Assembly: GCA_030167865.1 (NCBI GenBank)
Contig: JALAGF010003375.1
Location: 1 to 39,495 of the forward strand
Length of the DNA stretch: 39,495 bases
Direction of reading: 5' to 3'
Source of the DNA: Craspedostauros australis
Lineage: Eukaryota
Part shown: positions 12,985 through 36,700 of the stretch, piece after piece
Layout of the letters: each line of letters begins with the position of its first letter
Numbering within the stretch: position 1 is the first letter of the stretch
The notes under the pieces: model-generated
The model's input: the letters and a program-made list of their open reading frames with translations, nothing else
What the model was told of the DNA's origin: nothing
Databases searched by the model: none
Position numbers and translations under genes: made by a program

Positions 12985-15819
12985 TCCGCACTGTGTCAAA
13001 CGGTTTCTGTAATGGAACGCGGTGGTCTCTTTGTCTTCAGATGAAGTACTATACACCGTGGAGCAACTTCATGAACGACAGGGTCCTCTACTCCTCAGGG
13101 CGAATAGGTGCGTTGACGCATTGGTCAGCGGATGATACCAACAATGATGATGATGATGATGCGTGACATGATCGCCTCGGCACATCAATGATTTGTTCTT
13201 CCGCATCATTTGGTGGTTGGGACTGGATCGTGGAAGAGACCTTCAATCGTGAACGATCGAAAACGAGTCCCAATGCAGTCACATGGGTCATCTGAGTACG
13301 GCATGAGTGACAAGAATGCGCGTCGACCATGATGCGGAATCGCGGCAGCCACGACACAAACCGAAGAGAGCACCACAAGTTCGCTTGGCCATCCCGCCAC
13401 AGCTCTTGTGAAGAAAGACATCGAATTTCGGTCCAGGGTCTGGGTTCGTGGCTGCTCTCTGGTCGCATGTCTCGCTTGCTGGTGTCGCCACAGGTGTGTA
13501 CCGTGCAACTATTATACTTCCAAATACTCGACAAGGATTGCAGCTCGCATGGTACTCCACTCCACGAGCATAATTGTGCGGATCGTACGAGCACGATACA
13601 AGCCACACTTACTCTGCAAGTGCCATTTCACGGTGGGTGAACTTTTTGGAACTTTTGCACTTTGAAGCTGGGGTTGCACTTCAGCAATCATGCGGCAATC
13701 CAGGAGGGAAGCGCTACAATGGAGAACCATGGCTGCAAGAAGTACACGACACTTGCTCATGTCAAAGCAGCGTCACAGGTGTGTCACAGGATCAGCCCAG
13801 GCAACCAGCGGCACCGCCGAGAGAGCTGCGCGAAGAATGAGGTCAGCAACGATGAAGGAAGAGGCAACCTTCACAGACACAGAACTCCGGGCATCAAACT
13901 GCAACCTGCAACCTGCGAAAGTTGCAGTTGGACAGAACATTACGCACGCACGAGTCACGGAATACTCCCAGGCATGTGATGAACATCGACATGGTTCAAG
14001 TTCAATTTGTCTGTGTAGTTCCAGAAACAACTTGCTGGTTCGTCTTCGCAAGCAACAGGAAACGATCGTTGGCGCAATCGAATACTGTACAGTAGGTCAG
14101 CAGCTTTTGCCAACCGTTGTTACGGAACTTGTTGAAGCAACGCCGAAGGCCCTCCCCCACGGCGCCAAACGCAACTTACATCCGCAGAACAGAACGACGG
14201 CAAGAAGGCAGCAATGAAGTACGAGGTATGCATGGTGCGCACGGCACCGGATTCAAGGGCATGTCATAGTTGCTACATGCATATGCTGACACATGTTCGT
14301 AGCTTGTGTCCATGCCGCGTGAGTCCATGCGCTTGCGACCACTCGCGTCGTCACCGTTCACTACCGCTGCCACGCAACCTTCGACATGGCCAGAATGCTT
14401 GACAGAAGACGAAGAATGCGAAGTAGGAAACAGAATGCGAAGAACCACCCGAACACGAAACAGGATATTCGCAATCCAGAGAGGGATGGCGAAGTTCTCA
14501 TCAACTCACCTTGAGCACCCAACATCCCGGGCCCCAAAGCGCAATGGACGTTTCCCATCCAGACACGAAGAGGAAGAGAGAAACTTCATCCACTTCCATT
14601 GTTCCGTATCTTGGGAGACACAAGAGTGGGGGATCCTATTCGAGAGCACCACACGTACATGCTCTACACCCTCTCTTGGGTCTTCTGCTCGTCTTCACGT
14701 GATATTCGATCCCTCCGAGGCCAACGCTGCTCTAGATTCGGATAGTAATCTCGCAATTCTAACTTTTCCATTGCTTTGCCATACGAATATTCATTGAATA
14801 ATACAATACGTGCCTATCGCACGCATTGGCAGAGTATACAATTGCATCACCAGTACAAAGCACCAACAAATTACACCAGCACGTGGAGACATGGGGCATG
14901 TACCATAGGGGCTTCACCGTCCGCAGAGATCTGTCATGACATGCACGATACATACCATACCATACTATACCATGGCAACACCTGCAGAACTATCCTGTAC
15001 TACTATGAGCGCAAACCGCACAAGGGGGTGCATGATAACAGCCCCTCCAGTAACGCTGTTGATGTCTACACTTGCCTGGACATCATGGCCTCGTCGTTTT
15101 ACAGACCTTGTGGTGGCGGCGCAGGTCACAAGGCCCCTTGGGTTGGGCCATTAGTCACTTCAATCACCACTGCTTCCGCTGCCAACTCTTCACATGGCCA
15201 TGGCGTGCCCAGACTTCTCTCTCCTTCTCTTCTTGCTCTCGCGTTGTTGGCTGCTCATGGCTCTTGCACGGAAATAGCACACAAAGGCACAACACGGTTC
15301 GTCACCTCTTGGCTGCATTGGAGAACCTCTCCTGGGCGTTCTGTCTTCTTGATCCCGGATTTGCGTGGTACGTCATCAATCACAGGTTTTCGAACAGGAC
15401 AAATTGCACCTTTAGGAGCAGAAGACGCTTCATGTCAAAACGTGTGACAAAGAGGTCATCTCTTGGATGGGGCCTCCTCTTGTGGAGTTCCGTACAGCCC
15501 AACACGAACCCCATCCAATCGCCACGATGCAAACAGGACAGCACTCCCACCCAGACGCGAAGGATGAGGGGAGGGACTCGTGACGACCTTGCTGAGCAAA
15601 ATCGACACTCCTCGGAAGCAGATACCCACTCACAAAAAGCAGCCTCGCCCAAACCAAAACCGCCCAAAGACCCACATTAATTCAACCTAACAGCATTCCA
15701 AACACATTGAACGCACCCACCACCGCAACAGAGAGATAGAAGCAGGGAAGCAGCGAACATACGCTTTGAACATACATACCAAACACACTTGCCAGGTCAT
15801 ACTCGCACACGCACACAAG

Positions 15820-16239
15820 ATGGGAGATTCCAATCTCAACGGGCCCGCCTCTGGAAGCAGCAGTAGCTGCCAGCCGGGCAACATCCCGCTCAACGACTCG
15901 TCAGCCGTATCCCAGACCCAGCCAATCCACACGCATGTACACATGGGATCGCAATCGTTGCTACGGTACTGGGGATCGTCCAGTGTCCACAGTTTCCCAC
16001 ACTTGGGTGAAAGCGGCGCAAGCACGAGCCAATCGGAGATGCCATCCAGGCACCCTGTATGCTGTCCTTCGAAGGGTGGGGGCGTGCCATGGACAGCGAT
16101 GGGCAACGCACAAGCAGCCTCAAGCGACCGGACGACCCAGATCATCGACATTCTGGATTCTGTTCTGGATATCCTGAACGATGAAGACGATGGCTGTGAC
16201 GATGGTATTGACGATGAGTTGCTTCACTTCCTGGGATGA
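15820..16239 (+). CDS. Small disordered protein (139 aa) with C-terminal acidic amphipathic helix motif IIDILDSVLDIL (family member A)
   Basis: ATG 15820 follows a CA-rich leader. Ser/Gly/Pro/Gln-rich body. The terminal motif is shared with the ORFs at 18711 and 31150. Confidence 0.65.
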   Translation: MGDSNLNGPASGSSSSCQPGNIPLNDSSAVSQTQPIHTHVHMGSQSLLRYWGSSSVHSFPHLGESGASTSQSEMPSRHPVCCPSKGGGVPWTAMGNAQAASSDRTTQIIDILDSVLDILNDEDDGCDDGIDDELLHFLG

Positions 16240-18710
16240 TCTGATTCGCTTGATCGATATCTGTACGCAACCCACCAGCTGTATCATGCGTACGGATACG
16301 AGTGCAATACTTACATCGACACCCCTCGAGCAACGTGGCAGCACCCAAGAGCAATCCCATGCAATCTGTGGGAGCTTTCCGTCGATTTTGCCAGATCCAT
16401 CTTCCGGATACCATGGGACCAGATGGAGCGAGATGACGGTATCGACACGAACGCTACCAACACCGCCGCTGGTACAATGCACAGATTGTGGGCACTTTGC
16501 CCAAGAAGGAAATCCCTCAGACTGGGACACAGAACGAGAGTGATAGCGACAGCAAAGACGAAGACCAGGAAGTCATGGCATGTACAGTATACATACCCTA
16601 CACAATCTGTCTGTTAAATAATGCATAGTCAAACACGACGTACAATAATAGAATACGATGTATTATAATAGAATAGAATATAACCGCATAGTGTCATTTT
16701 TCGCAATAGCATAGCACGCGCAATAGGCATGGGAGTAGTAACATTGTACGCACTGTGCCATGCTCGTTGATATCGGAATGGTTCGAATCCGTACTCTGGA
16801 AAAATGCCATACCAACATGAACGAGGAATGGCATTGGTGAACCGACGCGCGATCTTGTCGTGGCCACTCGAGCCCTCCCACCAGGCCTCATGCGTCGAGG
16901 ATAAGGAGACCATACATGTACTCTCCTATGAGCTATTATACATACCATACTCCACGCACCGTACAAATACTGTACGAATGCTATACGAATGCCCAACGCT
17001 GGATGCTATCAATGCCGGTATCACTGCAACATGATCAATCCTTCTGCTGGAGTCTACTCATTGACTGCACTTCACTGGCTCGTACTGTGGCACTCCGCCC
17101 CAAGGGCGCGGACTGCTCTGGGCGCAAATAGCAACACGCATGCAGAGGCTTCGTGGTAGGCTCCATGCGGAAGGCAGAACGTCATCCTTGTCTGTGATTG
17201 ATGTTGAAGCTTGCGGCCAGGGGGTGTACGTATGGGCTTCGATGCTGGGCGCGGAATGGTACCTCGTTTGAATCCAGCATCGCACACGCAGCAGAGGAGA
17301 CTTGTTTGTGCCTTCCTCTCTCTCTCTCTCTCTGCGAAGAAAGCAAGAGAGCTCTCTGTGCTGTGCGATTAGCTGGTGCGATGGCTTGTGCACCATCGAC
17401 CAATACTCCACCGTCGGTCGCGCGCCGCTCTTGACCGTCAGCACATCGCAGCCGCGGATACGCACACCATGCTGATGACGACACGAGAGTGGCCACCCGC
17501 CCCTCCCTAGCTCGCAGTAGTTGGTCGTACCGTGACCCTGCAATCACGAAATCTCTGCCGCCATCTCTCTGATCCGCACTGCTGACGGACTGATCCAAGT
17601 TGAAGATGTGCAGAACACTGGACAAATTGAGACAAATGTGGGAAGAATCGGTCTTGGGGGAGCCTTTTTCTTCGGACCTCGCGTCCAAAGTGTTTGTTCA
17701 CACGGCGCAGATAATTTCGGGAGATAAGAGGACCTCGCAAGAGAAGTGACGAATGGTGCGCAACTTCTGTCCCACTCTCACTCTTTCTATTTCTCTTCAC
17801 TCGGGTTTCTGTGGCAAGCGACATTGTTCGGGTTGTGCGTTTCTCCATGTTCTCCGCGTCGCGTGGGCTCTCCCTCATGCCATACTTGTTGAATTGTTCG
17901 CGACTGCCACAGCGTTCTGGTTCCCTGGGACGTGGTTGTGACTTCTCTCTGGGAGACACACTAGCCTAGTTGTTGCTTTGGAGCAGTACCGAATGGAAAT
18001 TTGGCCCCACCACCAGCGTTCCTTCCGCGAACATTCGTGACCACGAAGTGTCACTTAGGCTATAATTCGTCCCAGAAAAGAACATGGAGGCTTTGTTCGA
18101 AGCAGATGGCCGAAAAGGCAGTTGGTGGATGCTCATGAGAACCGGAAAAGACACGCACTGCCCACTTCGCGCCTTGCCGATTCTGACGATGGAGGGAGAG
18201 AGACGGGCACAACCACACTTTCTCCACGCTGGACCGCAGCACGACCGCAGCACGCGAGCCACAGGTCGGAGATCGTAGGCAGCTCGTGCCTGCTGGTATC
18301 ATGTGTACAACAAGAACAGCCACTGGCGCCCGTTGGTGCCTTGCGAGAGAGAAGCAAGACATGTCAACGCGCCCTTTGACTCGTTCTGTGCACACCATCG
18401 TGCCATGGCCCGTACTCTGCACATGTGCCTTCTTCAGACACTCGACAGATGCGACAAATCAAAGCAGAGACGAAAAAGGGAGCAGAAATGCGAACTGACA
18501 ACCACAGGGCAGAGACGCGACATGGGAGGCTGGCCATTTGAGGCATTCTGGCGCCACCTCTCCTTGGAGCCATAATTTCAGAACAGACAGAAAGGACAAC
18601 AACAACATCAAGCACATTGGGCATCCATCACGCATCGCGAAACACCAACCAAACCCAACACCAGCACTCGACGCAACACAGCACTTATTGACATCATACA
18701 ACATCACACC

Positions 18711-19115
18711 ATGACATACCACAAGCAAGCGCAGCAGCAGACCAACATCGTGGCTCTCATGGCCTCGGCATCTCAGAACCGCCACATGCTCCCATCTCGG
18801 TCGTTGCCACCATCGTCACAGTCTCCGTCCTCTCCGCAATCAGCGCATCGAGGGGAGTACAGAAGGAGCATGCAGATCCCCGCCTCCTTGGCATCTGGAT
18901 TGTACCCTTCAAGAGGAGCACCAGCGCACTCGTTGTTCTCATCTCCAACGCCAATGTCACCTCTGTTCTTGGCATCGGGCGACTCCCAAGCAGCCACCGT
19001 GAGCTCGCAGCGAGCTCTGCTCATCGACACCATCGATGATGTTCTGCACTTGATCCAGGAGGACCAGGACTCGCTGTGCTCCCCCACCGACGCGATCGAT
19101 CAGCTGCTGCAATAA
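18711..19115 (+). CDS. Small disordered protein (134 aa) with C-terminal motif LIDTIDDVLHLI (family member B)
   Basis: ATG follows a CA-rich leader. Ser/Pro-rich body with the shared terminal motif. The stop overlaps AATAAA. Confidence 0.68.
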   Translation: MTYHKQAQQQTNIVALMASASQNRHMLPSRSLPPSSQSPSSPQSAHRGEYRRSMQIPASLASGLYPSRGAPAHSLFSSPTPMSPLFLASGDSQAATVSSQRALLIDTIDDVLHLIQEDQDSLCSPTDAIDQLLQ

Positions 19116-20190
19116 AGTGGCCGTCGATGCCTGCGCTCTACGTTTCGAGGGCAGCAACCACAACGGCGCACTGCGTCAACACAATCACAAGCGCAACGCC
19201 GTGTGCATGCACACACACACGTCCGCGCCTCCAGACTTTAGATGCGTGTACGATGCGCCACAATCGACCTGGTGCTCCAGGTCTTCTCACCAATGTACGA
19301 ATAACAAAAGACCAACCTACCGGCCGGCCGGCTGACTCATGGACGAGTCCACCACCAGCAACAAACTGGAGCCGAGACAGAGCCAAACGAAGCCAGACGG
19401 ATGTATTCTGTACCATACGATAAGGAGGATTTGATGAACTCCATCGAACCAGACCACAAGAGAGAGCGCAACTTGCAAAGGTGCCTCATCCAATAACTTG
19501 CATAGACCACCAATAGATACACCCCATGAATACACTACTTTTCAATGCTGGCACTCTACTCGTACGTACACAATACGCAGCTCAGTACAACACGGCACCA
19601 CACGCACACCATGCGCTGCACTACTTCGCCTTTTCCTACGTTCGACATCCATCGCATTCATCCATCGCATTGGACCGCCGCTCCAGGTCGTTCCTCTTCT
19701 GCTGATAAAGTCGCGACACGCATGGTTTCGGGCGAAATCACAAGGGTCACGGGAACGTGGAACAGCAAATACGAACCAAGAGGGAGAGGTGAGATTCACT
19801 TCCTTTCCTTTCCGTTCATTTGGGCTTGTTTATACGAAACCCACGACCGCCAACGGCATCACAACCAAGCCTTTCGCCCTGCCTGGTCACTCCAGATATC
19901 CCTCTTCCGTGAGGTTTCTGCGTGTTGGCGGAGCGTAACTCGTACACGTAGACGACTTGTTCGCATTGGTGCTGCACTGGCGTCATGGGTACAAGCATGC
20001 GTGAAGAGAATGGCGCAGCGGATGCGCAGCGCGTCGCCGCGGAGTGGATGGGTCTTCCAATGACTCCCTTTCCCGCGGACACTTCAGGTAGAATCGTGGG
20101 AGAGCGTGGGTGATGGTTCTGGAGGTCCAACGTCCACGGCAGAAAGAGGCCAATGAAGTTCGCTTTGACGGTGGCGTCCAACGCGGAGGT

Positions 20191-20230
20191 GTTTGTGAGC
20201 CCATGTTGAATTCAACATTCGCTCACGAAT
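20191..20230. repeat. 40-bp imperfect palindrome with a perfect 16-bp core ATGTTGAATTCAACAT
   Basis: Core 20203-20218 is self-complementary; flanking GTGAGC (20195-20200) pairs with GCTCAC (20221-20226). Confidence 0.85.
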
Positions 20231-21777
20231 GGTGGCGTGGATCGAGGATCTCCGAACCAAGTGACGTGTGCAAGAGTACGCGCTCAAAGGCAGCACCAGA
20301 CACATTGTTGCCCTGGGTTCAGAGTGCCTCCATTTGGTGCTGCCTGTTCTGGTTGTTTCTTGTTGGTGTCTGCCCTGTGCCACGTCGTGCGTCAACTCGG
20401 GTATGAGTTCACTATGGACGTATACTCGGTAGACGCTGCCACAGCATCTTCACTTCCTGCGTCGACGCCTGTGTTATTGCGTCACCTGTGCGAATATTCA
20501 CGCAACTATTGTGCTCTCTCTGCCACACGACTATCGCACGCGCTCCTTGTATTTCCCGAGCAACCGCCTTCGTCACCACCACCATGACCGTCATCGCTAC
20601 TGCAAACAGCAGACGAGCATCCAAGGGAGCTCTTTCGCGGACTGTACCGCGCCGCTGCCTGACCACTCGTACGAATGCGATTGCGGTTCGAAAGGATCTC
20701 TCGCTTCGTGCGGAGCTGTGCCCTTTCAAAGTGCGCACTTGAAGAGGGCAGAACGGCATCACAACAGCGGATGAACCTGGCGCGCCTCATCATCGTCCAC
20801 GGAAAGAGCGTGCGCTAAACCGTGTTGTTGTGATAGTGCATCTCCAAAGGGAGCTCTCTCGGAAGGCAACGCCAATGACGCAGCCAACAACTTCCCTGAC
20901 CTCTGTTGTCGGCGGATTGGATCATTGTCGAACGATCCGCTCCACGCAATTCTACATACGGGTATGTCCCTTGTGGCAAAGTTCTGGGCTTGAAGAAAAT
21001 TAGTTTCTGTGGGTCTCCATCGCGACCACTCGGCACTGGAAGTGCAGCTGAATCTTGGTTGGTCCACTTGAACCTCTCAACTCGTGGCTTCTCTTTCGGA
21101 ATTCATCACCTGCGCCTCCGCTGTGCTGGGCTCCACCCTCTTCTTGATTCGCCCCTCTCCTTGTCATCGCACCCTTCTGGCATCGGACGGGCCGCACCTG
21201 GCATGCTGGTACGGGCGTCCACTTCTCTCTGCATTTGGTGCCGATGGAGCGGCGAGAGCTGTTTCCGAGGGTGGAGCTGGTATTCGTATTACACATGGGA
21301 GGCCATGCCCGCATGGAATGCGCTCTCGATGGGTTGGGTTGCTTGGCTTGGGTGCGTGGTATGCCCACCAGAATGTACTCGGACAAGGGCGAAGGGTGCA
21401 TGAATCTTCTGCCCTCTCGTGACGCCAGTTGAAGATGACCACCCCCACGTGCGGCGCCCACCCTCTCGCTTGCCTCGTGCACCCCATGACCAACTCCGAC
21501 CTGTTTACGCGTATGATGGCCGACCGCAAGAGTCGAAATTCGGCGATTGCTGGACAGCGAACCATCGTCGCGTCGTCAGGCGTAGATAGCCGTAGACGTG
21601 TCGAGTATGGTACCGTATATGGGCAGGAAGCACAGATTACCTTAGATGTGTAGGCGGACCCTTGCGAAGAAGCACATTTGTTGAGGCGTGGAAACGACTG
21701 GTCTTACTCTCCTTTCTCTCTCTCTGTGTCTTTCTCTCCCTGGGGAGAGACAGAGCACCATACATTATTGATCAACT

Positions 21778-24700
21778 TCAAGGAATGCCGTAAACGGCGG
21801 CTTCGCGGATAGCCCGGACGAACGTCGAGTCCCAGAACTTGCGCGAAAGCAAGCCCTCCACATCTTCGCCTTCCAGATCGGTATCGGTACCGCCAAGCCC
21901 AGTGCCATCTCTGTCGTCAGTTGGCGATCTCTGCTGTGTCTTCAACCTCTGCTGATGCTTGAGATACTTCACTTGATCGGACACGGGGCCTGCCCCAAAC
22001 ACCTTGCGGATGACGTCGCCCTTCACCCCCTTCCCGAGCTCGTTGTGGAACCACGCGATGCGACTATCCAGTCTGAATTTACCGGATTGCTCGCGCTCGA
22101 GGGCCTCCTGCTTCGTGATTGCTGCTGCTTGCATCAGGCGGAGTGTGGCAGCCTCCCACGTAAAGGCATGTCGCAGCTCATCCGTCAACGGTGCGGGGTC
22201 ATGTGACAGGGCCCACCAGAGATTCGCAACGAACTCCATCTTGTTGTTGTAGGCAAGGCAGTTGGGGAACTGCAGGAAGAATGTGTTGGATGGGTGCACC
22301 GGGATGATCACGAACTTGCCCATGGCAAGGGCTTCGAAGGTTGTCGTGCAAAGCACCTCGGAAATGGACGGGTTGACGAAGATGCTGTAATCGGTGTCCC
22401 TGAGCGCAGCATGGTCCACCCGACCAGGGAACGTGGCTGGAATCGCCTGGCGGCGAAATTCGTGCCATGATCGAGGGACCTTGTCAGTGAGCTTGACGAT
22501 CTTTGTTTTCGTCATGTCCAACTTTTCCTTGATTGCCGCCTGGATGGCCTCCAAGGTCGTTGCATTGAATTCGATGGTCTCGTTGCGCAGACTGTCGAGA
22601 GACCTGGGGACCTCTTGGATGATCTGGTCCAACGAATCCACAGCAATGGTTGGCAGTTGCTCCACAGCCACAATGGCCTTCTCAGCGATGACTTCCAATG
22701 CCTCCGATAGGTCTCCGTACGCTTCCTTGGCCTTGAATGGGATCTTCCGCAGCTCCGCCTTGGCTTGCGACGTCCACTTCTCCACCGAGTCCACGAATTT
22801 GCTGTACAGCGCATCGATCGAAGAACTTGCGCTGTCACTGTGATCGTCACTGGAGTCATCACTGCGGTCGTCACTGTCATTGCCACTGCCATGACGATCA
22901 GCAGGCGGGTCCTCGGAGACATCGTTATCACCGTTGATAGTATCATCTTGGCTTTCCCTTGCACTGCCCTTGTGGCTGGTGCGACTGTATCCATAGGGGT
23001 ATGGAAGGTCGCTGCGATTGCGACGATTGATCCATGTGAAGGCTTTCACCATGATCTTTGGCAGCTTCGAGGTGTCCTTCGAGGGCATGAATTTGGAGCT
23101 CTTGGAACTAGAAAAGGCAACCACTGACTGGGAAGAATGCCCTGCTTTCTGCTGCTTCCCTCGTTCGGTGGTGGATGAGTCAGATGCCATGCCATCAACG
23201 CCGCTGCTGGGAATACCACTGCCACCTCCGTTCGAACTCAATCGTTTGCGACCGATGAAAGCGCGCTCGATTTCGGCAGAGTCTGGGCCGGATCCAAAAA
23301 TGTCGATGGGGAAGTACTCGCCAGTGACCTCTTTGCCATACTCTTGGTAATCCAGCAGCAGGTCAAAGCCTTTGGCCCAGACGAGTTTGCCAATGAAGTA
23401 TACCTTCTTTGGTTGCTCTCCGTTGCCGCTCTTGCCATCGCCGCTGCCATCATCGCGGTTCGATGCGGCGTGTGGGAGAGGTTCCCGTTGGATGAAGTCA
23501 GATCTGACCCCATGGACGTTCTCCGTGACCTCCTTCTCTGCGGCGTAGGACTGCAGCACATCCGAGAGCTTCAAGATCTTGTGTGTGTAGGCCCGTATCA
23601 TCGCCGATGAAATCAGCTCCAACGCCGGTGCCGTCCACAGTCCACCGAATTCATTCGCCGCATACTCCTTGTAGTTGGTGTGGATGATGCCAACGACGTA
23701 GTTGTATTTCTTCGTCCAGCCATCACCTGGGGCTCGGAACCAATTGCAATGCTGTTGTTGCATTATGGTATCACGGCATCACGGCATCACGGCGCAATGT
23801 ACGCAATGTCCACGAATGAAAGTACGGAGAGAGGAAGGAGCAAGTAGAAAATGCCCTCGGGAGAGATGAGCGACGATGAAAGCGTTCTGCATGGAAGGGA
23901 TACGGCAGCATTCGGCAAGACACGCTGACAGGCAAAGCACGCGCTGAGAGTGCATCGGACAGTGCGTCGCTCTGCTTACCTCCGGCTCTTCCAGGATGCA
24001 GACATCTCGTTCCGATTCAGGCATCTTGGCTTCGTCGATGATGTCGCCCATGGCGAAGACGCTGCCCATGCCGGCGTGGTATCGTGCTGGATACCAGACA
24101 ATTTGCATGGAATCTGCCGCATCGGCCAATCCCACGCCATCCTTGCGCAGCCAGTTCCGGATGTACTCCTCCTGCTCTTGCGGCGTCTCGAATAGCTCTT
24201 TGCCGTACACCTGGCGCTGATCCTCGTGCAGTTCCAGCCACGGGATGACCAGCGTCACCCATGACGAATGGGAAGCGGGGATGGAAGAGTTGGTGGATGC
24301 AATCTCTTCATTCTGTTGCCCATCCGTGGTTGGTCGCGCCGGACCACCGCCATTGATTATATTTAATTGTCTGTGCAAGTATGCCGCCCGCAGCAGGGGA
24401 TTGACGGCCGTGCCAGTCATCCATGGCAAGGCTGCGGTGGTGACGACGTGGATGTACCGGCCTGGTCGTGTCAAGTCGGATTGCTCTGTAATTTGTGAGT
24501 CTTCATCTTCGTCATCGGTATCTTCGCCGTCGCTGTGCTGTTCCTTCTCTTGCCCAATGACGCCAATGACGCCTTGGCGATGCGTGGAGATGTCATGGTC
24601 GTCGTCGTCCTTATCATTGGACTGCTCTTCTGTTGCGCCGACTGCCTGATCATGGAAGCCAGCGAGGCTGTCGTCCTGGCCCGATGGCTCGTTGGCGATC

Positions 24701-25521
24701 GAATCTTCGTGCGGCGCCTGGAAGAGAGCGCTGATCCGCTGCCGCCCACCTTTGCTACCATGGGAATCCAGCACCGCATCACTCTCACGACGCAAGAGCG
24801 TGGAGCTGATATTTGCGATCTTGTCCAGGAATAGTTTCTGTTGCTGGTCACGCGGATATGGTGGCTCGTACACACTTGCCTGACTGTCTCCATCTGTACC
24901 CATGGTCCCATTCTGCGCCGGCGAATGCGTCGCGTTCATCGACTCCGGACCAGCGCTCGGTGAGCGTGCACTCGTGTCTGCATCGATGCCATCATCCGTC
25001 GGAGTGGCGCCTCCTTGTGGGATTTGCATGACCTGTCGCAGCGAGCCAGAGCACTGTGCGTTGAGAGAAGCCTGCGCATGGCGACAGGGGGCTTGCATGC
25101 TGCGAACTGGTCGCCGTTTCTCCGGATGCTTGGCAATCACCGTCTCGTCGCTCGACAGATGATCGTGTTCGCAACCATCGCCAGCATCGGTGAGGCCTGC
25201 GGGCATGTCAATGGCGTCCGGCAACCCGCGCGCGGCTTCGACGGTGAGCTCGCCATGCTGGGTTCTGGATGCACCGGCTGCTGCCGTACTGGATGCGCCA
25301 GTGTTTGCCACGTTGAATTGCGTCGATGAGGTGTTTGCCGCAAAGAGACAGACGATCCCAACGCAGATCATCGTCCGCGAGACGAACCATCGCAAGGACG
25401 TGGGACGCGTCCCAATGACAGCTGTCTTCGCCATGGCCTTCGACGTCGCCATTGTTGCTGTTGCTGTTGGCGCGAACGGCGAGTCTGCTTCGGCAATTTC
25501 TGCAGTTCTCATCGCTGGCAT
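21778..25521 (-). CDS. DGD: Digalactosyldiacylglycerol synthase (GT4 family), 2 exons, ~1171 aa
   Basis: Exon 1 is 25521-23980 and exon 2 is 23751-21778. The GTAAGC..CAG intron (23979-23752, phase 0) restores ILEEPE/HCNWFR. Conserved DGD motifs: VTTAALPWMTGTAVNPLLRAAYL, VTLVIPWL, VVGIIHTNY, VHGVRSDF, YFIGKLVWAKGF, FVNPSISEVLCTTTFEALAMGKFVIIPVHPSNTFF, TWEAATLR. Confidence 0.95.
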
Positions 25522-25537
25522 GAAGTGTACCACTGAT

Positions 25538-25592
25538 CTTGACTTGGCTTGGCTGAACTTGGGTCGACTTGACTGGACTTGACTCCGCTTGA
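25538..25592. repeat. Degenerate pentamer array (CTTGA/CTTGG-like, about 11 units) in the DGD 5' leader
   Basis: cttga cttgg cttgg ctgaa cttgg gtcga cttga ctgga cttga ctccg cttga. Confidence 0.7.
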
Positions 25593-26278
25593 CCGGGGCT
25601 GTTGCGAAGAGTCTCCAATGATGCCGGAGTGTGATGGTCTCCTGCGATGATCCTCTTGCAACAATGCTCTCCTCTTCGTCGTTGTCGTATCTCTCTCTCT
25701 CCCTCTCTCTTCGTGTGTGTGCGTCTTGGGGTATGATTGTGCCAGGATTACTGTGCTAATACTCGTATGATGGTAGGAGGAGTGAGCAGATCATGGTCTG
25801 GATGGAAATGAGCAGTCCAACCCAGCGACAATGGAAAGCGTTCGCCTCGCTGTTGCATCAACCAGACAACGTTGTGTCTGGCTTGTTACGTTGTTGTTCA
25901 ACATGTTTGCTCATCCATCTTCTTCGGATAAACTGGTTTTCAAACGCGAATAATTGTACCTAAAGGAGTAATTTACCGCACCTTTCTATTTCATCTGTTC
26001 AACGGACACGTTGCAGTTTTCATCCAATCATGAGAGACTGCTTCATGTACTTCAATCCCGAATATCTGAATGATCGTTGGAGTCGAACACAGAGTCATCG
26101 TGAATGGAATAGTCCAAAACAAGGACGCACTAAGATTCAGAAAAGAAATGGCTGCGATGTTGGCGACGATCTTTGCGACGATCGGCGGCATCAACCCCCT
26201 CCACTGATCCAAGACCAGAGGATACGCAGAGCTGCACATACGAGCTGCTCCACTCCTTCCAGTATATCGTACTCGTAC

Positions 26279-26863
26279 ATGACCAGCCAGCCTCGCATGA
26301 TGATCTGCATCCAACGCACAACACCGGCGACAAAGGGCCTGTCGTGGCAGCCGTCTTTGGCGTTTCTGGCGCTCCTGCTCCTCTCGGTCGCGCAGCCAGC
26401 TTCTGGCTTCGGCACAAGCGCATCGCCATTGCCATCAACGACATTCTCGCAAGATGATTGCGCGTTCCGCCAGACCGCGTCCTGCATGTTGCAACCACGA
26501 CAGCGGCAACTTCCGGCAACCCGTTGCTCCATGAACAAGAACGGAGGTTCGGAGGAGGACTCGACAGCAGCAGCGACCCGACCAAGGAAGTCAAGCAGCG
26601 TCGACGGCACGGGGCCACGAGGACTCATCCTGCAGGGGTTGGCGCTGTCCGTCTGTCTGTGGTTCTTCACCATCCCGGCGGAACTGCGACGCGTCCATTT
26701 TTGCACTGCTGAACGTTGCGTGCAGAATCGGGCTGCGTGCTACGACTGCGTCACCTTCGGAGAGTGGAAGTCAGACATCGTGCAGTACTATCAGAACGGA
26801 GGCGGCATCGAGTGGGATTTCAGCATCAGCCAAGAGTCCAGGGATATGTTTGCGGATAAGTAA
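26279..26863 (+). CDS. Small predicted plastid-targeted membrane protein with a 4-Cys C-terminal domain
   Basis: Signal peptide LAFLALLLLSVAQPASG|F (ASAFAP-like cleavage site), then a Ser/Thr/Arg-rich transit-like segment and a hydrophobic segment GLILQGLALSVCLWFFTIP. C-terminal domain FCTAERCVQNRAACYDCVTFGEW...YYQNGGGIEWDFSI. The start could be 26279, 26297 or 26300. Confidence 0.8.
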   Translation: MTSQPRMMICIQRTTPATKGLSWQPSLAFLALLLLSVAQPASGFGTSASPLPSTTFSQDDCAFRQTASCMLQPRQRQLPATRCSMNKNGGSEEDSTAAATRPRKSSSVDGTGPRGLILQGLALSVCLWFFTIPAELRRVHFCTAERCVQNRAACYDCVTFGEWKSDIVQYYQNGGGIEWDFSISQESRDMFADK

Positions 26864-28593
26864 GGTGGTATTCTTCTATTATATAATAGTATAATACAAT
26901 CTATTGTCCCCTTCCCTAGTCTAGTCTTATTCTCTATTGGATGTTTGTTCTGTAGTTGTGGTGCAGTTGCCTTTCGGCTGTTGCGTGCTGCCTTTCTAGC
27001 GATGACCAAATTGATGGCGTCCCATGTGCTCCGTTCGACTCTATTTGTGGTTGACATCCACTGTTTCTCGATCTCTCTTCTGTGCCTGTGCAGCAGGCGT
27101 CGTGGTTGTGCGCAGTCTCACTGCCAGCAGCGTTTGCTGCATCTCGTTCGACGGAAGGATGCAAGCGTGGCAAGTTGCCTGGATGGATGGATGGGCGAAG
27201 CCACGATAGAGAAAGAAAGCATCGTGCATGGTACATTGACAAGAACCGCAGCAAAATGGTGTGAGATGAAGGAGTCATGACAAAGGCCTAGTACGGATAC
27301 TGCAAAACATGGGTTCAAAGTCCCGCTCGTCTCTTTCTTCCAGAGGGCAGCAGCAGTGTGAGCAGCCGGGCAACCGAATCATTCTATATAGTAGCTGTAA
27401 GATTTGATCGTTTTGTCAACACATTCTGATTCAGTCAGCAATTGGACGTAATCGGGTGTATAATCATCTTCGGTTGTTTTGCGCGTGCGTCGCCTTTGCG
27501 TCGTTTTGAGCTTTGTACATCGAGTTGCGTTGCATTGTATTGGATTGCGTGGCAGCGCAGCATGCTGCCATCGAGCTTTGGCAAATCAGCATCGACTCCA
27601 AAAAGATGGAGATTGCACAACACACAGTTCGTAGTTGCGCTTACCTGGCAAGACAGATCTGGTCCAAGACGATCGGTTCGGGACCACGTGAAATCCTCAC
27701 TTCCATTTCTTCATGCCGCTCTGGAGAGCCTGCATGGTCACAGTTGCTGCAACTCGATGCAGAGAGGCGCGCATTCCTATCTCCCTGGCCACCAAACACT
27801 CATGTCCATCCTCGCACAGAGAAACGAACAATCGTACTCCTCGTGCCGTGATAGGCAATAGTGCGATGAAGTCAGAGTCGGATGCAATAGAACGAAGAAA
27901 GCGCCAGGAGCGTCCGCCTGTGAAGTTGATGTGATTGTGTTTGTGATGGTGAAAGAGAGTGGATCGGAATAAGTCCATACAAGTACGCAGAAAATTGTAT
28001 TACCATGCAGCAGCGTGAGACAAACGACCATTGGGAACCATGCGTTCATCCCAAAAGAACAAGCACTTCCTCCACCTTGCTGTCTGCGTCATCTCTGTTT
28101 TCATCTCCATTCCTAATTGCGCACATGGAATTGATCGTCATGAAGAGGCTCTTGGGAGCCCCTCAGAAACCGTAGTAATATGAGCTTCCATTTCTATAAT
28201 CATCGGAATGGAGATGTGCAGTTTGTGCTCGGATGTGCACGTATGCAGATGACGCATTGCGTTCAGGTGGGCCGTTTGCTTTCCAATTTGATTACTCTCC
28301 ACAACAACGCGTGTTATCTTTTGTGTCATCTGTGCGTACCTGACGATCGTGGTGAAGGATAGCGCAGTGAGGCGGGCCTTGCCGGATCTTCTCGCACATC
28401 TGCCTTTCTTGATTGCTGGTTTACGCGGCTTCAGCCGCCACCGTGCCAATCATTCATCTGATGGTCTCGGTGGTGAACTTCATCATACAGCTCGTGTTGA
28501 GTGCTTCTTGTTTGTCGACTTCATCGCCAAGCTGCTGGAGCCTTGCAAAGACCAGTCCGCGTGGATTTGTGAGTACGCATCACACAGATGAGA

Positions 28594-28638
28594 TCCACAA
28601 CGTCCACAACGTCCACAACGTCCACAACATCCACAACC
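28594..28638. repeat. 9-bp tandem repeat TCCACAAC(G/A/C) x5
   Basis: Units start at 28594, 28603, 28612, 28621 and 28630. Confidence 0.95.
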
Positions 28639-30047
28639 CCACGCAAACGCTCAAACAGACACCTCTGAATTGCTCCATCGCACAAGATTGCAAAGATCTT
28701 TGATGTCATCACTTGTGTGATTTCTGAAGTGCCACCATTTTCGTGGTTGTGAGAGGACGCTTCATCGTACAGACAGCAAGGCGGAAGAAGAGACGAATTG
28801 TTCCTCCACCAGTCTATTCTCTCAAATGCAGCCAAGCTGGCAAAACGAACCTGATCTAGTCCAGAGGTGGTCATATTCTGTCGGAATACAAGGACTCTCC
28901 TCGGGTCGTTTGTACGTGAGTCGAAGGGCCCCAACCGCTGCTATTTTGCCCATACTCGCACAAGCATGTTTGTACTAATGCTCTATCATGCGCCCATGTG
29001 TTATCCCTCCGCCTTCAAAGCCATGAACAACAATGCAGCACTAATACTGCCATCCACAGCGATGGAGGGTGGAAGCGCGAAGCTTGTGGACCATGGCAGA
29101 ACCCAACAAAAGCGACAGCCATTCAAGATTCGGCTACTACCGCTTTTCCGAAGACCGTGCAAAGGCGGTGGTGGTACAGTTCGTGGAAAATTAAGCAAGC
29201 AGAGGGGAACCAACCTTGGCTCTTGATGCTGTTTCTGCAGCGATTGCCGATGCCCTTCTTGTGCCGATAGTCGGGGCAGTGCAGCTGCTGCTTGTTCCCC
29301 TTCTCTACTTTGCGCTCTTCCGACTGACACTTGCGACCTTTCACGTCGCTGATCGGTGCGCTTTGGTTGTGGATGCTGCCAGTGGTTCTTGTGACGGGAG
29401 GTGTTCGCTGTGCGTGGTCCTCCCCTCCGACTGTCTCCGTTTGTGGAAGCAGGCGTCGTGATTGCCCATCTTCCTTGTTCGTCGAACGGGCCTTTTTCTA
29501 TTTTGGGAGTTGAAGAACACGCGGCTGATACAACAGCATCTGCAAACGGAGATTGAGGCACGTTCATCACTTGTACTCTTTGCCACTCTTCTCTATACTC
29601 CACTTCTCTGCTCAGCCTTGTTACGCGGATACGAGCAACGAGAGAGCGCCGACTCTTACCACGGTGGGATGGCACCACATGACACCACAGATGCACCATA
29701 GTACATGCTCACAGCTCGCACCACACTGGCCGCAACAACGAATTTTGCAGCATTACAAGTCTACGGTGGTAGCATGGTGAGTCGCGATGACAAAACAACA
29801 AGAACAGAGGGCATTCGGTCTGCCATTTGACATTTTGACCATTCGCTCCAATCCTCGCTACGGTTGCTACCGACGTACGCTCCACACTCATATCCCATGA
29901 ACCATGCCGCCGTATTGTGCTCCGCCTCTCTGTCTCTGTCTCTTGTGCCTCTTGCACTCGCAGAACACGATGCCAAGTATGCTGTGCAGACCGGAAACTT
30001 GCTCGACGCCCATGATTGGCAGCCGCGATAACACAAACCAAGATGTC

Positions 30048-30078
30048 AACGAACGAACGAACGAACAAACGAACGAAC
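30048..30078. repeat. (AACG)n tetranucleotide microsatellite
   Basis: aacgaacgaacgaacgaacaaacgaacgaac. Confidence 0.85.
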
Positions 30079-30372
30079 CCACAAGGTCCGCTCTTCCACC
30101 AGAACATCGCATGTGTGTTCAAGTTTGCGAGACGTGCGCTCGACACTCTTCTGCAGAGCTGATGGCGCAGAATCCTCAACCTCGGCTGTCCTTGGACACT
30201 TTGTGGACGCCGAGTGACATCAAATGCATCTGCTGGACTGTACCCGCATACATTCATCACGGGATTGTATCCTCTCTCGCTATCTTGCTCGCTGTCTTTC
30301 TCTCTTCCCGCGATTCGAGTGGCGCATCGTGGGATTGCGTGCCGACGTGTCTTGGCGAGTAACATGCATGTC

Positions 30373-30428
30373 GCTCTTGCTGCTCTTGCTGCTGCTGCTG
30401 CTGCTGTTGTTGTGGTTGCTACTGCTGC
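30373..30428. repeat. (GCT)n-type trinucleotide microsatellite, imperfect
   Basis: gctcttgctgctcttgctgctgctgctgctgctgttgttgtggttgctactgctgc. Confidence 0.8.
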
Positions 30429-31149
30429 CGTCCAAAGGCCCAGTTGAAGGGCGTTTGTAGTCTACGGGACGTGAAATGGCTCACAGGTGATATCCCTACC
30501 TGGTCTACGCGAACAGGCCACACTGAGGAGCCCACGATCACACTCGACCTTTTGCCATGCATGGCATGTGCGTGTCAGTACAGTGAAGAGACTTCAGTGG
30601 AGTTGTCAGGTACTCTACAGGAAGATCTGGCGCAGGGCGAGGAAGGACGGAGGGAGGTACGGAAGGGCACAACGCCAAAGATCCCACCCAACATCTGTTT
30701 GCAGAGGAATGTACGTAGCCTCGGTAGGGACCCTTGGTGGGAAGCTCACACGTGATGTCAGATTCTGTTTGGCAGAGAGAGTATGGTGTGGTTGAGAACG
30801 GGTGCAAAAGCCCAGGCCTGACGCATAAATCCACACAAACAAGCACCATGCTAGCCACCAGGGCAGAGTGTGGGAGGAATACCAGAAGCGAGAGGGGCTC
30901 AGATGATTGCCATAAATTAAGAACACAGCACAAATACTCACAAGCCAAAGCGCAAGAACCCAAATCCACATACCACGCCCTTCACCCTTCACTCTTCGCC
31001 CTGCAAACCGCAACACAGCGCCAAACGCACAACCACACAACCATACAATCTGCAACCAACGACACCCTGCGCAAAGAACACAGCACGCACAAGGGCGCAA
31101 AAGAAGCGCAAGTCCACATCCCAAGATCAACTCCGATTCACTCACAATC

Positions 31150-31653
31150 ATGCCATTCACCAAACCAACAGACTCGATTGAGAAGGCCAACACCAGCATC
31201 AGCGACAGCAACCATGATGGAACCTCAGTCGCATCTACGTCCACACCTGCATCTGGATCCGTCACCGCAGCTCAGACTCAGGCGCATTCTCTGACTTCGT
31301 ATCAAGATCAAGCTTCGGCCCGTTTCCAAGCAAATTCCTCGTTTCACTCATCAGGATCCGCAGCATATCCATCTTCTGGCATGCAGCAAGGACAACCACA
31401 AGACCGTGCTATCCCAAGCTCGTTCAATGGCATCATGCTTCACAGACTCGGATCTCCGGCTCTTGCAAGGGAGATTTGCTTCCCATCGCCATCTCAGCCA
31501 GCGCTGATGTCGATAATGGACGATGGCACCGACTTCAGCCAAGATGATGAGATGGAGATGTGGCAACCCGTCGATGGATCTCGCAAGTCCGTCCTGGATA
31601 TCTTGGACGAGGCACTCGATATCGTGAATGGCACGATGGACGGCTTCGATTAA
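31150..31653 (+). CDS. Small disordered protein (167 aa) with C-terminal motif VLDILDEALDIV (family member C)
   Basis: ATG follows a long CA-rich leader. Ser/Thr/Ala/Gln-rich body with the shared terminal motif just before the stop. Confidence 0.7.
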   Translation: MPFTKPTDSIEKANTSISDSNHDGTSVASTSTPASGSVTAAQTQAHSLTSYQDQASARFQANSSFHSSGSAAYPSSGMQQGQPQDRAIPSSFNGIMLHRLGSPALAREICFPSPSQPALMSIMDDGTDFSQDDEMEMWQPVDGSRKSVLDILDEALDIVNGTMDGFD

Positions 31654-33717: not shown

Positions 33718-36700
33718 CTATGGCGACGATGACGCTTGCTGCTGCTGCGGTGTCGTTCTCTCCTGGTTGTCACGGAACCACAACACTTCTTCGTAGGTCT
33801 TTTGCTTGAGCGTCTTCAGATCCATCTTGGAGGCATTCAAGAATTCGGGCGTTTGCATTACCTCCAGCGCTCCCCGCTCCATCTGTTCCCTCTGCACATT
33901 TTTCAAGAATGGATGCTGCAGTGCCTGCTGGGCTGTCAGGCGCTTGTTGGGATTGAACTGCAGCATCTTGTCCAGCAGATCCAAGGCTACGGGATCGGCG
34001 GCGGGGAAGAGCTTCTGGATTGGTTTGGAATGCTTGATGCTGCCAAGCAGAGTCTTGATGTATTCGGTCGCCTTCAACCCGAATGCATCCATGTCTTCCT
34101 GGCTGGGAGCCCCGATCACGGAGAAGATCACGCTGAGCTGATCCATCCGTTCGTCTGATGACACGTTACCGCCTTCACCTGACAATGGATAAGATGTGCC
34201 GCCAGGGAAGAGTGGAGATCGATCTTGATAGCTCGGTATGCTATCTTGCTGCATCGACAAAAGCTCTGCCAAGATGCAACCCAAACTCCAAATGTCAACA
34301 GCTGAAGAATACGGCTGAATCAAGATCAATTCGGGGGCTCTGTACCAGCGCGTCACGACATGCTTTGTCAGCTGCCTCGTCAGGGGAGCTTGCTACAAAA
34401 ATGGGACGGGCACAGGTGGTGTGATGGAAATTCATGTCAACCGTTGGATATCAAAGGTGAGAAATGGGATCATGTGCATGGTGGAACAAAGAAATAGAGT
34501 AGAGCACAAGTGTTAGACGCATTGCATTGTATTGCATTGCATAATGACGTGCAAGTATTCGAATTGTCATCCTCGAAAGACTTCGACCAAGAATCTGCGT
34601 CTGGCAAGCGCAGAAAGGCATAATCCAACCGACCAATCCATCCAATCTGGACAATCGCTACACAAGTCGTACAATGGCTATGCTGAAGACGCAGCGCAGG
34701 CCATTGACAGATACGGAATGATGCATGCAGCACGAAGCATGATGCTCAACTCACCTTCATGGAAGCAAAATTGGGAGGTGCCCGCACGTCCTTGCCAGGC
34801 GTCTTGCTCTTGTCCTTCTGTTCGTCTTGAGCAGTCGACGACATCATCGTTGATGGATCGACCGTCCTTGCAAGTCCAAAGTCGCAAATCTGTCATGCCG
34901 TCATTCGATCGCACACATTTGAGTTTCATCGAGTCGGAAACATGTCATACAATGGGATGAAAGGGAATAATTGGCGAAGAAAAGTGGTGGTTGTGAGATA
35001 AGAGTCGTGGCTGTCATGAGATTGCAACAGGTGCCTGCAAGGGGATCGAGACAGAGGCTTTGCCCCTCCCATGCACATACAATAGCACTAGCAGCAGCAA
35101 CAGCCAAATATCATACCGGAGGAAACTGTGTGCGCAGTCTCCGCATTCATATCTATCTTCTTGCCATGCCATTTGCACGTGCTCCACGCTGGTCAAGCAG
35201 TCGCCGCGCATCCGCACACGGCACCGCCAGATACACTCACTTTAAGAGAACAGTCTTCATTGAGAAGGATATTGGCCGGCTTCAGATCACGATGGATCAC
35301 TGACGCGGAATGCAGGAATCGCAAACCAGCCAGCATCTGGTACAGGAATGTTTGGATGTGCTCCGTCGTGAGGTATTGCGGCGACATGATGAGTTTGTAC
35401 AGATCCGTGTCGACGTCTGTGATGACATGGATTAAATATGCATTCGTTCATGGGGCGCGCGCATGTACACGAACATGGCATGATAGAGTAGAGTAGAACG
35501 ACGTACAGAGTGGAATCAGCGAATGTTGTGTTGTGTTTTGTTGCGTATCATCGGAACAGCTGTGGTGAGTATGCGTGCAACATGCGATAATGGATTTGGG
35601 ATTGACATAATCATGCAAGATGCAATGCAATGTAACGTCACGTGATGGCATGGCTTGAACCGTTGGCATGGAAGAACAGGCCAACGCGACGATCGGGCTT
35701 GTACGTGACTTTCATTGCAGCCCGCGCACATCGAAGACAACGCACATGCCGCAAGGAAGAGATGCGACTTACATTCAAAGACAAGGTAGAGATCGTGGAA
35801 GTCATCCAGATCATCAGTCGGTGGCTGGACAACATCCACCAGCTGTATGATGCACTCGTGGCCACGCAGACGTCGCAGGATGTAGATTTCACGGAAGAGA
35901 CGGACCGCATCGACTTCTTGATCGAACGGCGACGTGATGCGCTTGATGGCCACGAAGGTGTCGGGCGGATGGTGCAAGTCGCGCGCTTGCGCCACCTCGC
36001 CGTAGCTGCCCCTACCCAGCATGCGTATCAACTCGTACCGATCCCCGACCGCCCATTCTGAGAAGTCTTCGGATAGCATGGGCTGGCGGAGTGGAGGAGC
36101 GTCGGCAGGTGCATTTTGCTGCTGCTGCTCTGTTTGTTGTTGCGGTGGCTGTGCCGTGGCGTGCGGCGCAGACGAAGCCGCCTTTCGAGAGGGTTTGGGA
36201 GCGGGTGTGACTGCGCCATCGCTGAAGAGCTGATGCTGCCGTTCCAGCTCCTTCGCGTTCTGGATTTCTCGGTTGGTGACGACGGGCACAAGCGGCAGCG
36301 AAGGTGTGGCAATGCCCGTGGGCGTTGGCATGGCGTGCAATGGCATGCCTCTGGGCGTGCGGGCTGTTTGGAAGTGATGCTGATGATGCCATATCTTGGC
36401 TTCCGACGATGCCGGAGTCGACGGTGGCGCTGGTGGGACGTCAGGGATGTAAAGCGAGTTGCCCGAGGGCGTCATCAAGCTTCGGAATGAGTCGGATCGA
36501 GCCAGGGGTGTTGTGGCGGTCGCTGCTGCTGCTGCGCCGGATGTAGCACCAGTGCCGACCGGCGCTGTCGCGACGGACGTGTACGAGGCCGCAGATGCTG
36601 CTGCGACAGCCATGGCGGAAGCGGAGTGTGAGGAGAGGTCGGACATGGATGATGAGTCGCCCAGGCTGGACCGCCTTCTCTGAGACACGGTACTGGGAAG

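Follow-up and report, generated by a model that had tools for sequence, protein, structure and literature searches.

The stretch of DNA analysed here, referred to as the window (39,495 nt in full), carries three small open reading frames, A, B and C, that share a short acidic motif near their C-termini. The initial annotation had reported three same-strand ORFs of 134-167 aa and quoted a motif peptide for each; the ORFs lie where it placed them, on the plus strand, and the three peptides were quoted correctly. The features that matter for the following discussion are, in order of position:

15565..15819, + strand: ATG-free leader of gene A, 256 nt from the previous ATG
15595..16642, no strand assigned: contig of run X1 over gene A, colinear, 1048 nt, 0 differences and 0 gaps
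15820-16239, + strand: gene A, ORF of 139 aa, Ser/Gly/Asp-rich, disordered; annotated as singleton protein P0001
16141-16176, + strand: motif copy A, IIDILDSVLDIL, pattern match, within predicted helix 101-122; muH 0.62, highest value in the protein
16207..16233, + strand: second short helix of A, residues 130-138, AlphaFold2 prediction
18523..18710, + strand: ATG-free leader of gene B, 189 nt from the previous ATG
18603..19482, no strand assigned: contig of run X1 over gene B, colinear with the genome, 880 nt
18711-19115, + strand: gene B, ORF of 134 aa, Ser/Pro/Gln-rich, disordered; annotated as singleton protein P0002
19020-19055, + strand: motif copy B, LIDTIDDVLHLI, pattern match; muH 0.60, highest value in the protein
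30904..31149, + strand: ATG-free leader of gene C, 247 nt from the previous ATG
31150-31653, + strand: gene C, ORF of 167 aa, Ser/Ala/Asp-rich, disordered; colinear with A
31591-31626, + strand: motif copy C, VLDILDEALDIV, pattern match, within the sole predicted helix of C; muH 0.62

By codon usage, A, B and C rank 18th, 12th and 11th among 131 ORFs, and each of them scores above every frame that overlaps it. Their leaders are uncommonly long, as gaps of at least 189 nt between ATGs make up 34 of the 1768 ATG-to-ATG gaps in the window. The contigs of run X1, which is RNA by guess and may be DNA, extend beyond gene A by 225 nt upstream and 403 nt downstream, and beyond gene B by 108 and 367 nt, respectively. 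In both cases the ATG of the ORF is the first plus-strand ATG of the contig, and neither A nor B contains an intron as covered by these contigs. Gene C has no X1 contig, which has no bearing on its expression. The exact sequence of A is present in UniRef, mmetsp and eukprot, and that of B in eukprot; the mmetsp listing is that of MMETSP, a transcriptome project. The exact ORF C is absent from the public protein collection searched. All these observations (ATG-free leaders, coding-like codon usage, X1 contigs and public predictions), to which the third-position changes discussed below can be added, make A, B and C look like genuine protein-coding genes, and the codon usage and the contigs over A and B agree with the earlier view of the ORFs as protein-coding.

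The shared motif comprises 12 residues, ΦΦDxΦDx[AV]LxΦΦ, and occurs once in each protein. When written as [ILVMF]2-D-x-[ILVMF]-D-x-[AV]-L-x-[ILVMF]2, it has exactly three matches in the six frames of the window, all of them in A, B and C. The same pattern had no match in any of 400 dinucleotide shuffles and a single match in 400 residue shuffles, counts that overstate its significance because the pattern was fitted after the fact. A fairer test is provided by leave-one-out profiles of the C-terminal region, built from two segments at a time. In each of the three trials the omitted ORF came first among 650 non-training stop-to-stop ORFs, with E values of 0.005, 0.012 and 0.028. This result upholds the original argument that three such motifs are unlikely to arise by chance and that A, B and C belong to one genuine family. 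The motif was also said to lie at the very end of the ORFs, which is not the case, as 20 (A), 19 (B) and 8 (C) residues separate it from the stop codon.

Full-length leave-one-out profiles ranked the omitted ORF first for A, fifth for B and sixteenth for C. In alignments of the tails, the observed score was reached by none of 1000 composition-preserving shuffles for A-B or A-C and by 11 for B-C. The similarity between A and C extends beyond the motif: their bodies, aligned without it, score 62 against 33.2 +/- 6.0 for shuffled sequences, a value reached by 1 of 1000 shuffles, and BLASTP aligns the two proteins over 158 columns (E 5e-6), compared with E 0.003 for A-B. Within the window, the best non-self tblastn matches of A are C and B, and the best match of C is A. 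The body scores of A-B and B-C are not significant, being reached by 924 and 141 of 1000 shuffles, respectively. The earlier statement that the bodies lack obvious similarity thus stands for A-B and B-C and fails for A-C. It follows from the BLASTP and body shuffle results that A and C, which share a weak colinear similarity, are paralogues that have diverged, contrary to the proposal that the helix alone unites them. We found no DNA repeat linking the three loci and nothing convincing in the way of shared promoter or UTR words (one 8-mer common to the upstream regions, none downstream), and neither hmmsearch of 652 ORFs nor tblastn revealed further family members in the window. Flanking genes are a methyltransferase/R3H gene (11188-12984) and a glycosyltransferase gene (21778-25521).

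Codon comparisons indicate how the motif has been conserved. Across 17 aligned motif codons, the first, second and third positions are identical in 10, 11 and 5 cases between A and C, and in 8, 12 and 2 cases between B and C. Six of the eight identical A-C motif residues are encoded by differing codons. For this pair, pN is 0.25 and pS 0.81 in the motif, against a pN of 0.59 in the body. The A-B pair gives no clear purifying signal (motif pS 0.30, pN 0.41), with identical codons at all five identical residues. Overall, the motif shows a protein-level pattern of conservation, whereas the bodies have diverged to a nearly random state. As there are no orthologues, the estimate of constraint draws on only 14 codons in three old paralogues.

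In the AlphaFold2 model of A, most of residues 1-98 have a pLDDT below 50 and are modelled as disordered, and a helix at residues 101-122 (16120-16185; block pLDDT 69-77) covers the motif. The second short helix of A has its aligned counterpart in the D-x-I-D-x-L-L tail of B and none in C, where the only helix predicted spans residues 148-161 (31591-31632; block pLDDT about 59-64). The motif segment is the sole stretch that the models of A and C show as a confident helix, in line with the helix originally proposed, with moderate confidence in A and low confidence in C. Its amphipathic character, also part of that proposal, is well borne out: in all three proteins the hydrophobic moment is highest at the motif (muH 0.60-0.62, reached by 12-25 of 2000 segment shuffles), with hydrophobic residues spanning about half of the helical wheel and Asp/Glu filling the other half. 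The last 45 residues carry net charges of -12 (A), -8 (B) and -12 (C), compared with -1, +6 and -1 for the respective bodies. A predicted complex between residues 92-139 of A and residues 87-134 of B, the two tails, modelled without controls, scored 0.02 against a mark of 0.34, which weighs neither for nor against an interaction.

We did not detect relatives of these proteins beyond the window in any of the collections searched. Against Pfam-A at E <= 10, hmmscan returned no family for A or C, and for B only DUF1079 at E 1, which we regard as noise. Homologue searches, whose reach is limited to fairly close relatives, returned nothing for C among 60 candidates and only the query itself for A (25 candidates) and B (55 candidates). 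No relatives were present among 298 pattern matches in a metagenome scan or 109 in a viral scan; a relative sharing the motif alone would be undetectable in such libraries, as its expected score is about 10-12 bits. The ESM Atlas gave no usable feature match for A or its tail, with generic helices as structural neighbours, and Rfam had no match in the window. A sequence search of the PDB with the three-sequence profile and with the tails of B and C produced only unrelated rows (E at least 0.7). A possible link between the tail of A and tubulin (E 0.44, seen with A only) was judged to be due to chance. The three motif peptides occur in no paper searched, and keyword searches turned up nothing relevant and no account of an A/B/C family in the portions of the literature that they covered. 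The wider family envisaged by the initial annotation was not recovered: among 1,835,955,588 representative proteins, the three-sequence profile found only A and B themselves at E <= 0.001. On the evidence of these sequence searches, A, B and C are a three-member orphan family.

Several known systems resemble this family in design. CITED proteins are CBP/p300-interacting transactivators with a Glu/Asp-rich tail, which are small, largely disordered and devoid of DNA-binding or enzymatic domains, and which, to our knowledge, are restricted to animals. Like them, A, B and C are small and mostly disordered, with an acidic C-terminal region that contains a helix, the one in CITED folding on a hub domain. 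Unlike CITED, they show no sequence relationship (the Pfam profile, which includes the CR2 region, is not matched), their motif is shorter, and a counterpart of the second anchoring motif of CITED2 could not be shown in them. Acidic activation domains are defined by function and do not constitute a homologous family. The A/B/C tails resemble them in that acidic residues are interspersed with Leu/Ile/Val and the flanks are disordered and rich in Ser/Pro/Gln. The sequence features expected of such domains are present, namely net acidity, interspersed hydrophobic residues and, according to the models of A and C, a disordered context. Unlike the proteins that carry these domains, A, B and C have no DNA-binding domain, and activity cannot be judged from sequence.

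Paxillin combines several LD motifs, which serve as docking modules and have the consensus LDxLLxxL (strict core L-[DE]-x-[LM]-[LM]-x-x-L), with LIM domains. The A/B/C motif is likewise a short Leu/Asp-rich amphipathic helix in a disordered region, and its core, L/I-D-x-[VA]-L-x-Phi-Phi, resembles that consensus; it differs from paxillin in that each protein has a single motif and no domain, and in having Val/Ala at the fourth position, where LD motifs need Leu/Met. Likeness to LD motifs or to CRM1 nuclear export signals (NES), invoked when the motif was first described, is not a shared feature of the family, since none of the three proteins fits the strict LD pattern and one of three fits the NES pattern. 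In algal pyrenoids, disordered proteins that are unrelated or fast-evolving are joined by a short helical Rubisco-binding motif for a single partner. The concept of one short helix uniting disordered algal proteins is the same here; however, the sequence and charge of the motif differ, A, B and C have no targeting peptide and show no sign of a plastid location, and they are only three paralogues rather than a set of unrelated proteins.

The data show the genes themselves, their family relationship, the amphipathic helix and the protein-level constraint on the motif. The helix is probably a docking handle for a shared partner; the identity of this partner, the binding and a regulatory role belong to the conjectural part of the proposal. 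We favour, with a probability of roughly 0.45, a reading in which A, B and C are intron-less orphan nuclear genes and old paralogues whose acidic helix would dock on a common partner. The sole constrained element of each disordered protein would be the acidic amphipathic helix of about 14 residues near the C-terminus. On docking, this helix would fold into a groove, hydrophobic and basic in character, on a single folded partner shared by all three proteins, and the paralogues would either compete for that partner or bring different disordered bodies to it. Such a mode of action would be comparable to that of CITED-type co-regulators and of acidic activation domains on co-activator hub domains; CITED2 is reported to compete with other disordered ligands at the TAZ1 domain (PMC8784115).

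Alternatively, the helix could be a self-association module that builds homo- or hetero-oligomers (helical bundles or coiled coils), for instance a scaffold or a condensate formed from the disordered bodies. Its hydrophobic face of about 180 degrees (positions 1, 2, 4, 5, 8, 9, 11 and 12) is wider than in many docking motifs, and together with the second short helix it could give a helix-loop-helix unit in A and B. Yet C has no second helix, no heptad-repeat extension is present, and the segment is just 14-22 residues long or so and strongly acidic (tails -8 to -12), so that like copies would repel each other unless cations or a basic partner were available; we consider self-association unlikely. 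Less likely again is that the motif is a leucine-rich nuclear export signal, or another localisation signal, read by a CRM1-type receptor, with the family consisting of small shuttling proteins. The spacing Phi-xx-Phi-xxx-Phi-xx-Phi is present in all three motifs and A fits an ELM-style CRM1 NES pattern, but B and C do not, the loose spacing would fit any amphipathic helix, and we know of no NES class that requires conserved Asp at positions inside the motif.

It could also be argued that the ORFs are non-functional, either young or decaying orphans lying in DNA that may or may not be transcribed, and that the shared motif is a leftover of common ancestry that is not under selection. The lack of relatives outside this genome in the searches made, the lack of a Pfam domain, the low-complexity composition and the missing annotation of C would fit this view, as would the codons of A and B, identical at the five identical motif residues as simple ancestry would give. 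However, A and C have reached saturation at synonymous sites (pS about 0.8), and still the motif pN is less than half that of the body (0.25 vs 0.59). Long ATG-free leaders precede all three ORFs although such gaps are scarce in the window, codon usage is coding-like, and the motif coincides with the one predicted helix, which together leave a non-functional origin about as improbable as self-association. Finally, the best PDB match of the last 44 residues of A is beta-tubulin 107-140 (14.3 bits), in an ungapped alignment of 34 residues that reaches the last residue of A, and one Atlas cluster of structural neighbours is 56% Tubulin, which is below the bar for naming a family. An origin of the A C-terminus in helix H3 of beta-tubulin, or mimicry of that helix, is nevertheless very improbable, as an E value of 0.44 is not significant and neither the three-sequence profile nor the tails of B and C returned a single tubulin row.

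A bolder version of the docking reading, doubtful in our view, would make A, B and C the part so far seen of a lineage-specific class of hub-binding co-regulators, belonging to a stramenopile-type alga and evolved independently as a counterpart of the animal CITED switch. Such a class would consist of small disordered proteins, born and diversified in one lineage, whose acidic helix competes for one folded hub. Candidates for the hub include a co-activator and other signalling domains, and further members of the class, recognisable only at the level of the motif, might be encoded elsewhere in the genome.

As it stands, our work describes a small species-restricted gene family in a marine microbial eukaryote. 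Families of this kind are common in protist genomes, and the main use of the present one lies in annotation, as gene C seems to be missing from public protein sets. If the helix does dock on a common partner, A, B and C would illustrate in compact form how an orphan gene can acquire a function, with one short constrained helix carrying the activity while the remaining protein drifts freely, and they would provide an entry point to a regulatory hub in a marine alga.

Three plus-strand ORFs of the window, here called A, B and C, each carry a single copy of a 12-residue motif (ΦΦDxΦDx[AV]LxΦΦ), as the initial annotation had proposed:

15820-16239, + strand: ORF A, 139 aa
16141-16176, + strand: motif copy in ORF A
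18711-19115, + strand: ORF B, 134 aa
19020-19055, + strand: motif copy in ORF B
31150-31653, + strand: ORF C, 167 aa
31591-31626, + strand: motif copy in ORF C

A six-frame search of the window returned these three matches only, even under much looser patterns. The motif had been described as terminal; it does lie close to the C-terminus, but not at it, since 20, 19 and 8 residues still follow it in A, B and C, respectively.

The fitted pattern was absent from all 400 dinucleotide shuffles and turned up once in 400 residue shuffles. As it had been fitted after the data were seen, pattern-independent tests were added. When leave-one-out profiles of the C-terminal segments were scored on the 652 stop-to-stop ORFs of at least 40 aa, the omitted ORF ranked first of 650 in all three trials (E 0.005-0.028); with full-length profiles it ranked first (A), fifth (B) and sixteenth (C). 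Shuffles and tail profiles thus bear out the earlier claim that three such motifs exceed chance. In tail-only local alignments, the score was matched by 0 of 1000 shuffles for A-B and for A-C, and by 11 of 1000 for B-C. BLASTP aligned A with B over the last 49 residues (E 0.003), A with C over 158 columns at 25% identity (E 5e-6) and B with C at E 0.29. In tblastn searches of the window, the top non-self matches of A were C and then B, that of C was A, and B found A second (E 0.26) after an unrelated match (E 0.14). The alignment of C to locus A begins at 15775, within the stop-to-stop frame 15691-16239, which is open at that point, and 15 codons upstream of the first ATG of A; this may be noise or the sign of an ancestral start further upstream. 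Neither a profile search of the ORFs nor tblastn revealed further copies in the window. No DNA-level repeat connecting the three loci was found, so that a dispersed repeat or transposon fragment can be ruled out.

The bodies of the proteins had been reported to lack obvious similarity. This holds for A-B and B-C, which do not exceed shuffles, but not for A-C: with motif and tail removed, these bodies align colinearly with a score of 62 (shuffles 33.2 +/- 6.0), equalled by 1 of 1000 shuffles. A small D-x-I-D-x-(x)-L-L element located C-terminal to the motif, a short helix in the model of A, is common to A and B and absent from C. The simplest reading is that A, B and C belong to a single old gene family, in which divergence approaches saturation everywhere but in the helix.

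Scored by codon usage, with seven long ORFs from the window as the training set, C, B and A rank 11th, 12th and 18th among the 131 ORFs of at least 80 aa, and all three score above every ORF overlapping them. Their start codons are preceded by ATG-free stretches of 256 (A), 189 (B) and 247 nt (C); of the 1768 gaps between successive ATGs on the two strands of the window, only 34 reach 189 nt, and several of those not belonging to A, B or C sit before the long ORFs. Over 17 codons around the motif, identities at codon positions 1, 2 and 3 number 10, 11 and 5 for A-C and 8, 12 and 2 for B-C, and identical residues use different codons in 6 of 8 (A-C) and 4 of 4 cases (B-C). Nei-Gojobori proportions for the A-C motif, of only 14 codons, are pS 0.81 and pN 0.25, as compared with a body pN of 0.59; the effect is absent from the A-B motif (pS 0.30, pN 0.41). 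The B-C global alignment was set aside because it misplaces the motif. Six contigs of the sequencing run X1, RNA by guess and possibly DNA, cover 3,587 of 18,001 bases of an 18-kb stretch in separate blocks; this patchiness looks like a transcript assembly, which does not by itself prove transcription. As X1 had been picked out by means of this same stretch, its read depths carry no weight here. The contigs at 15595-16642 (A) and 18603-19482 (B) match the genome without differences and run colinearly with it; on the plus strand the ATG of each ORF is the first of its contig, and on the minus strand the first ATG falls at position 17 or 39. The exact sequence of A occurs in UniRef, mmetsp and eukprot, and that of B in eukprot, so that A and B already figure among predicted proteins; MMETSP is a transcriptome project. 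An exact match to ORF C was not found in the public protein collection, and C appears to be unannotated or annotated otherwise. Codon usage, leaders, codon-level conservation and X1 contigs, four independent features, agree in pointing to genes, which are very probably real; that A, B and C are non-functional orphan ORFs seems improbable.

The window as a whole (G+C about 50-63%) looks like ordinary eukaryotic nuclear DNA, without matches to Rfam families anywhere in it. Its ORFs are long and mostly intron-poor, and include:

ORF: AAA_16 ATPase-like protein
ORF: methyltransferase/R3H protein
ORF: group-1 glycosyltransferase
ORFs: protein-kinase fragments

On the minus strand, ORF 23779-25521 (580 aa) is followed head to tail, after a gap of 15 nt, by ORF 21778-23763 (661 aa). 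The latter shows weak matches to group-1 glycosyltransferases, and the pair looks like a single large glycosyltransferase gene broken by a short intron or stop. X1 contigs (RNA or DNA) overlie 21681-22259. The C-terminal part of a protein-kinase domain in 33718-34254 (-) and its N-terminal part in 35516-37411 (-) probably belong to one intron-split gene with a long N-terminal extension. ORF 26030-26863 (+; 277 aa), overlain by an X1 contig at 26225-26839, has no Pfam family and is a possible further lineage-specific gene. A tandem repeat at 28594-28638, with the 9-nt unit TCCACAACG spaced at 9 nt, falls within the overlapping ORFs 28461-28703 (+) and 28521-28874 (-).

AlphaFold2 models of A and C, built with the three-sequence alignment, agree with the proposed small disordered proteins bearing a helix at the motif. 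In A, pLDDT is below 50 for most of residues 1-98, and helices are predicted at 101-122 (block means 69 and 77) and 130-138; C is modelled as disordered apart from a helix at 148-161 (block pLDDT about 59-64). The helical hydrophobic moment (14-residue window) peaks at the motif in all three proteins, at 0.60-0.62, a value equalled by only 12-25 of 2000 segment shuffles. Hydrophobic residues occupy about 280-100 degrees of the helical wheel and Asp/Glu 140-240 degrees, in line with the amphipathic acidic helix originally described. Charges over the final 45 residues are -12 (A), -8 (B) and -12 (C), as against -1, +6 and -1 over the bodies.

In Pfam, A and C matched no family, and B had just a noise match. 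Among 5.77 billion proteins, word-seeded searches with A and B recovered the queries alone, and the search with C recovered none. In a full HMMER search with the three-sequence profile, A and B were the sole sequences at E <= 0.001 among 1,835,955,588 representatives, mmetsp and eukprot sources included. Back-translated motif scans gave 298 metagenome and 109 viral pattern matches, none a relative by tblastn, and the Atlas offered no usable feature neighbour. These searches are blind to proteins having the motif alone, which would escape them because it scores about 10-12 bits.

A disordered chain with one constrained acidic amphipathic helix, paralogues that keep just this helix, and the absence of a catalytic or nucleic-acid-binding domain together characterise a molecular recognition element. 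On this ground we tentatively favour (probability roughly 0.45) a model in which a single groove of one folded partner accommodates A, B and C alike. The helix would fold upon the partner, where the different bodies would act differently; alternatively, the three proteins may compete mutually or with other ligands for the groove. Among known systems, CITED proteins come closest in how they work: their disordered acidic tail reportedly drives a second disordered ligand off the TAZ1 hub domain (PMC8784115); acidic activation domains form the broader class around it. Both are analogies and not memberships, and Pfam gives no CITED match for A, B or C. The boldest reading, though a rather unlikely one, is that the alga has independently evolved a CITED-like competitive hub-binding system, of which other parts of the genome may encode further members.

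Other roles for the helix seem less plausible. Self-association through its broad hydrophobic face is improbable, and a transport signal more so. The suggested likenesses to paxillin LD motifs and CRM1 export signals fail as common features: the strict LD pattern fits none of the three proteins and a CRM1 NES pattern one of three. The last 34 residues of A (16138-16236, +) align ungapped, up to its last residue, with beta-tubulin 107-140, which comprises helix H3 and the first part of the next loop (14.3 bits, E 0.44 against the PDB). Neither the family profile nor the tail of B or of C returns this match. A tail derived from tubulin H3 is scarcely credible and was rejected because only A matches, at E 0.44; the alignment is probably due to chance.

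The family comprises no more than three species-restricted paralogues; it is new insofar as it lacks detectable relatives and a description in the literature searched. That a short helix is conserved while the disordered chain around it drifts is a well-known principle, and small orphan families of this kind are common in protist genomes.
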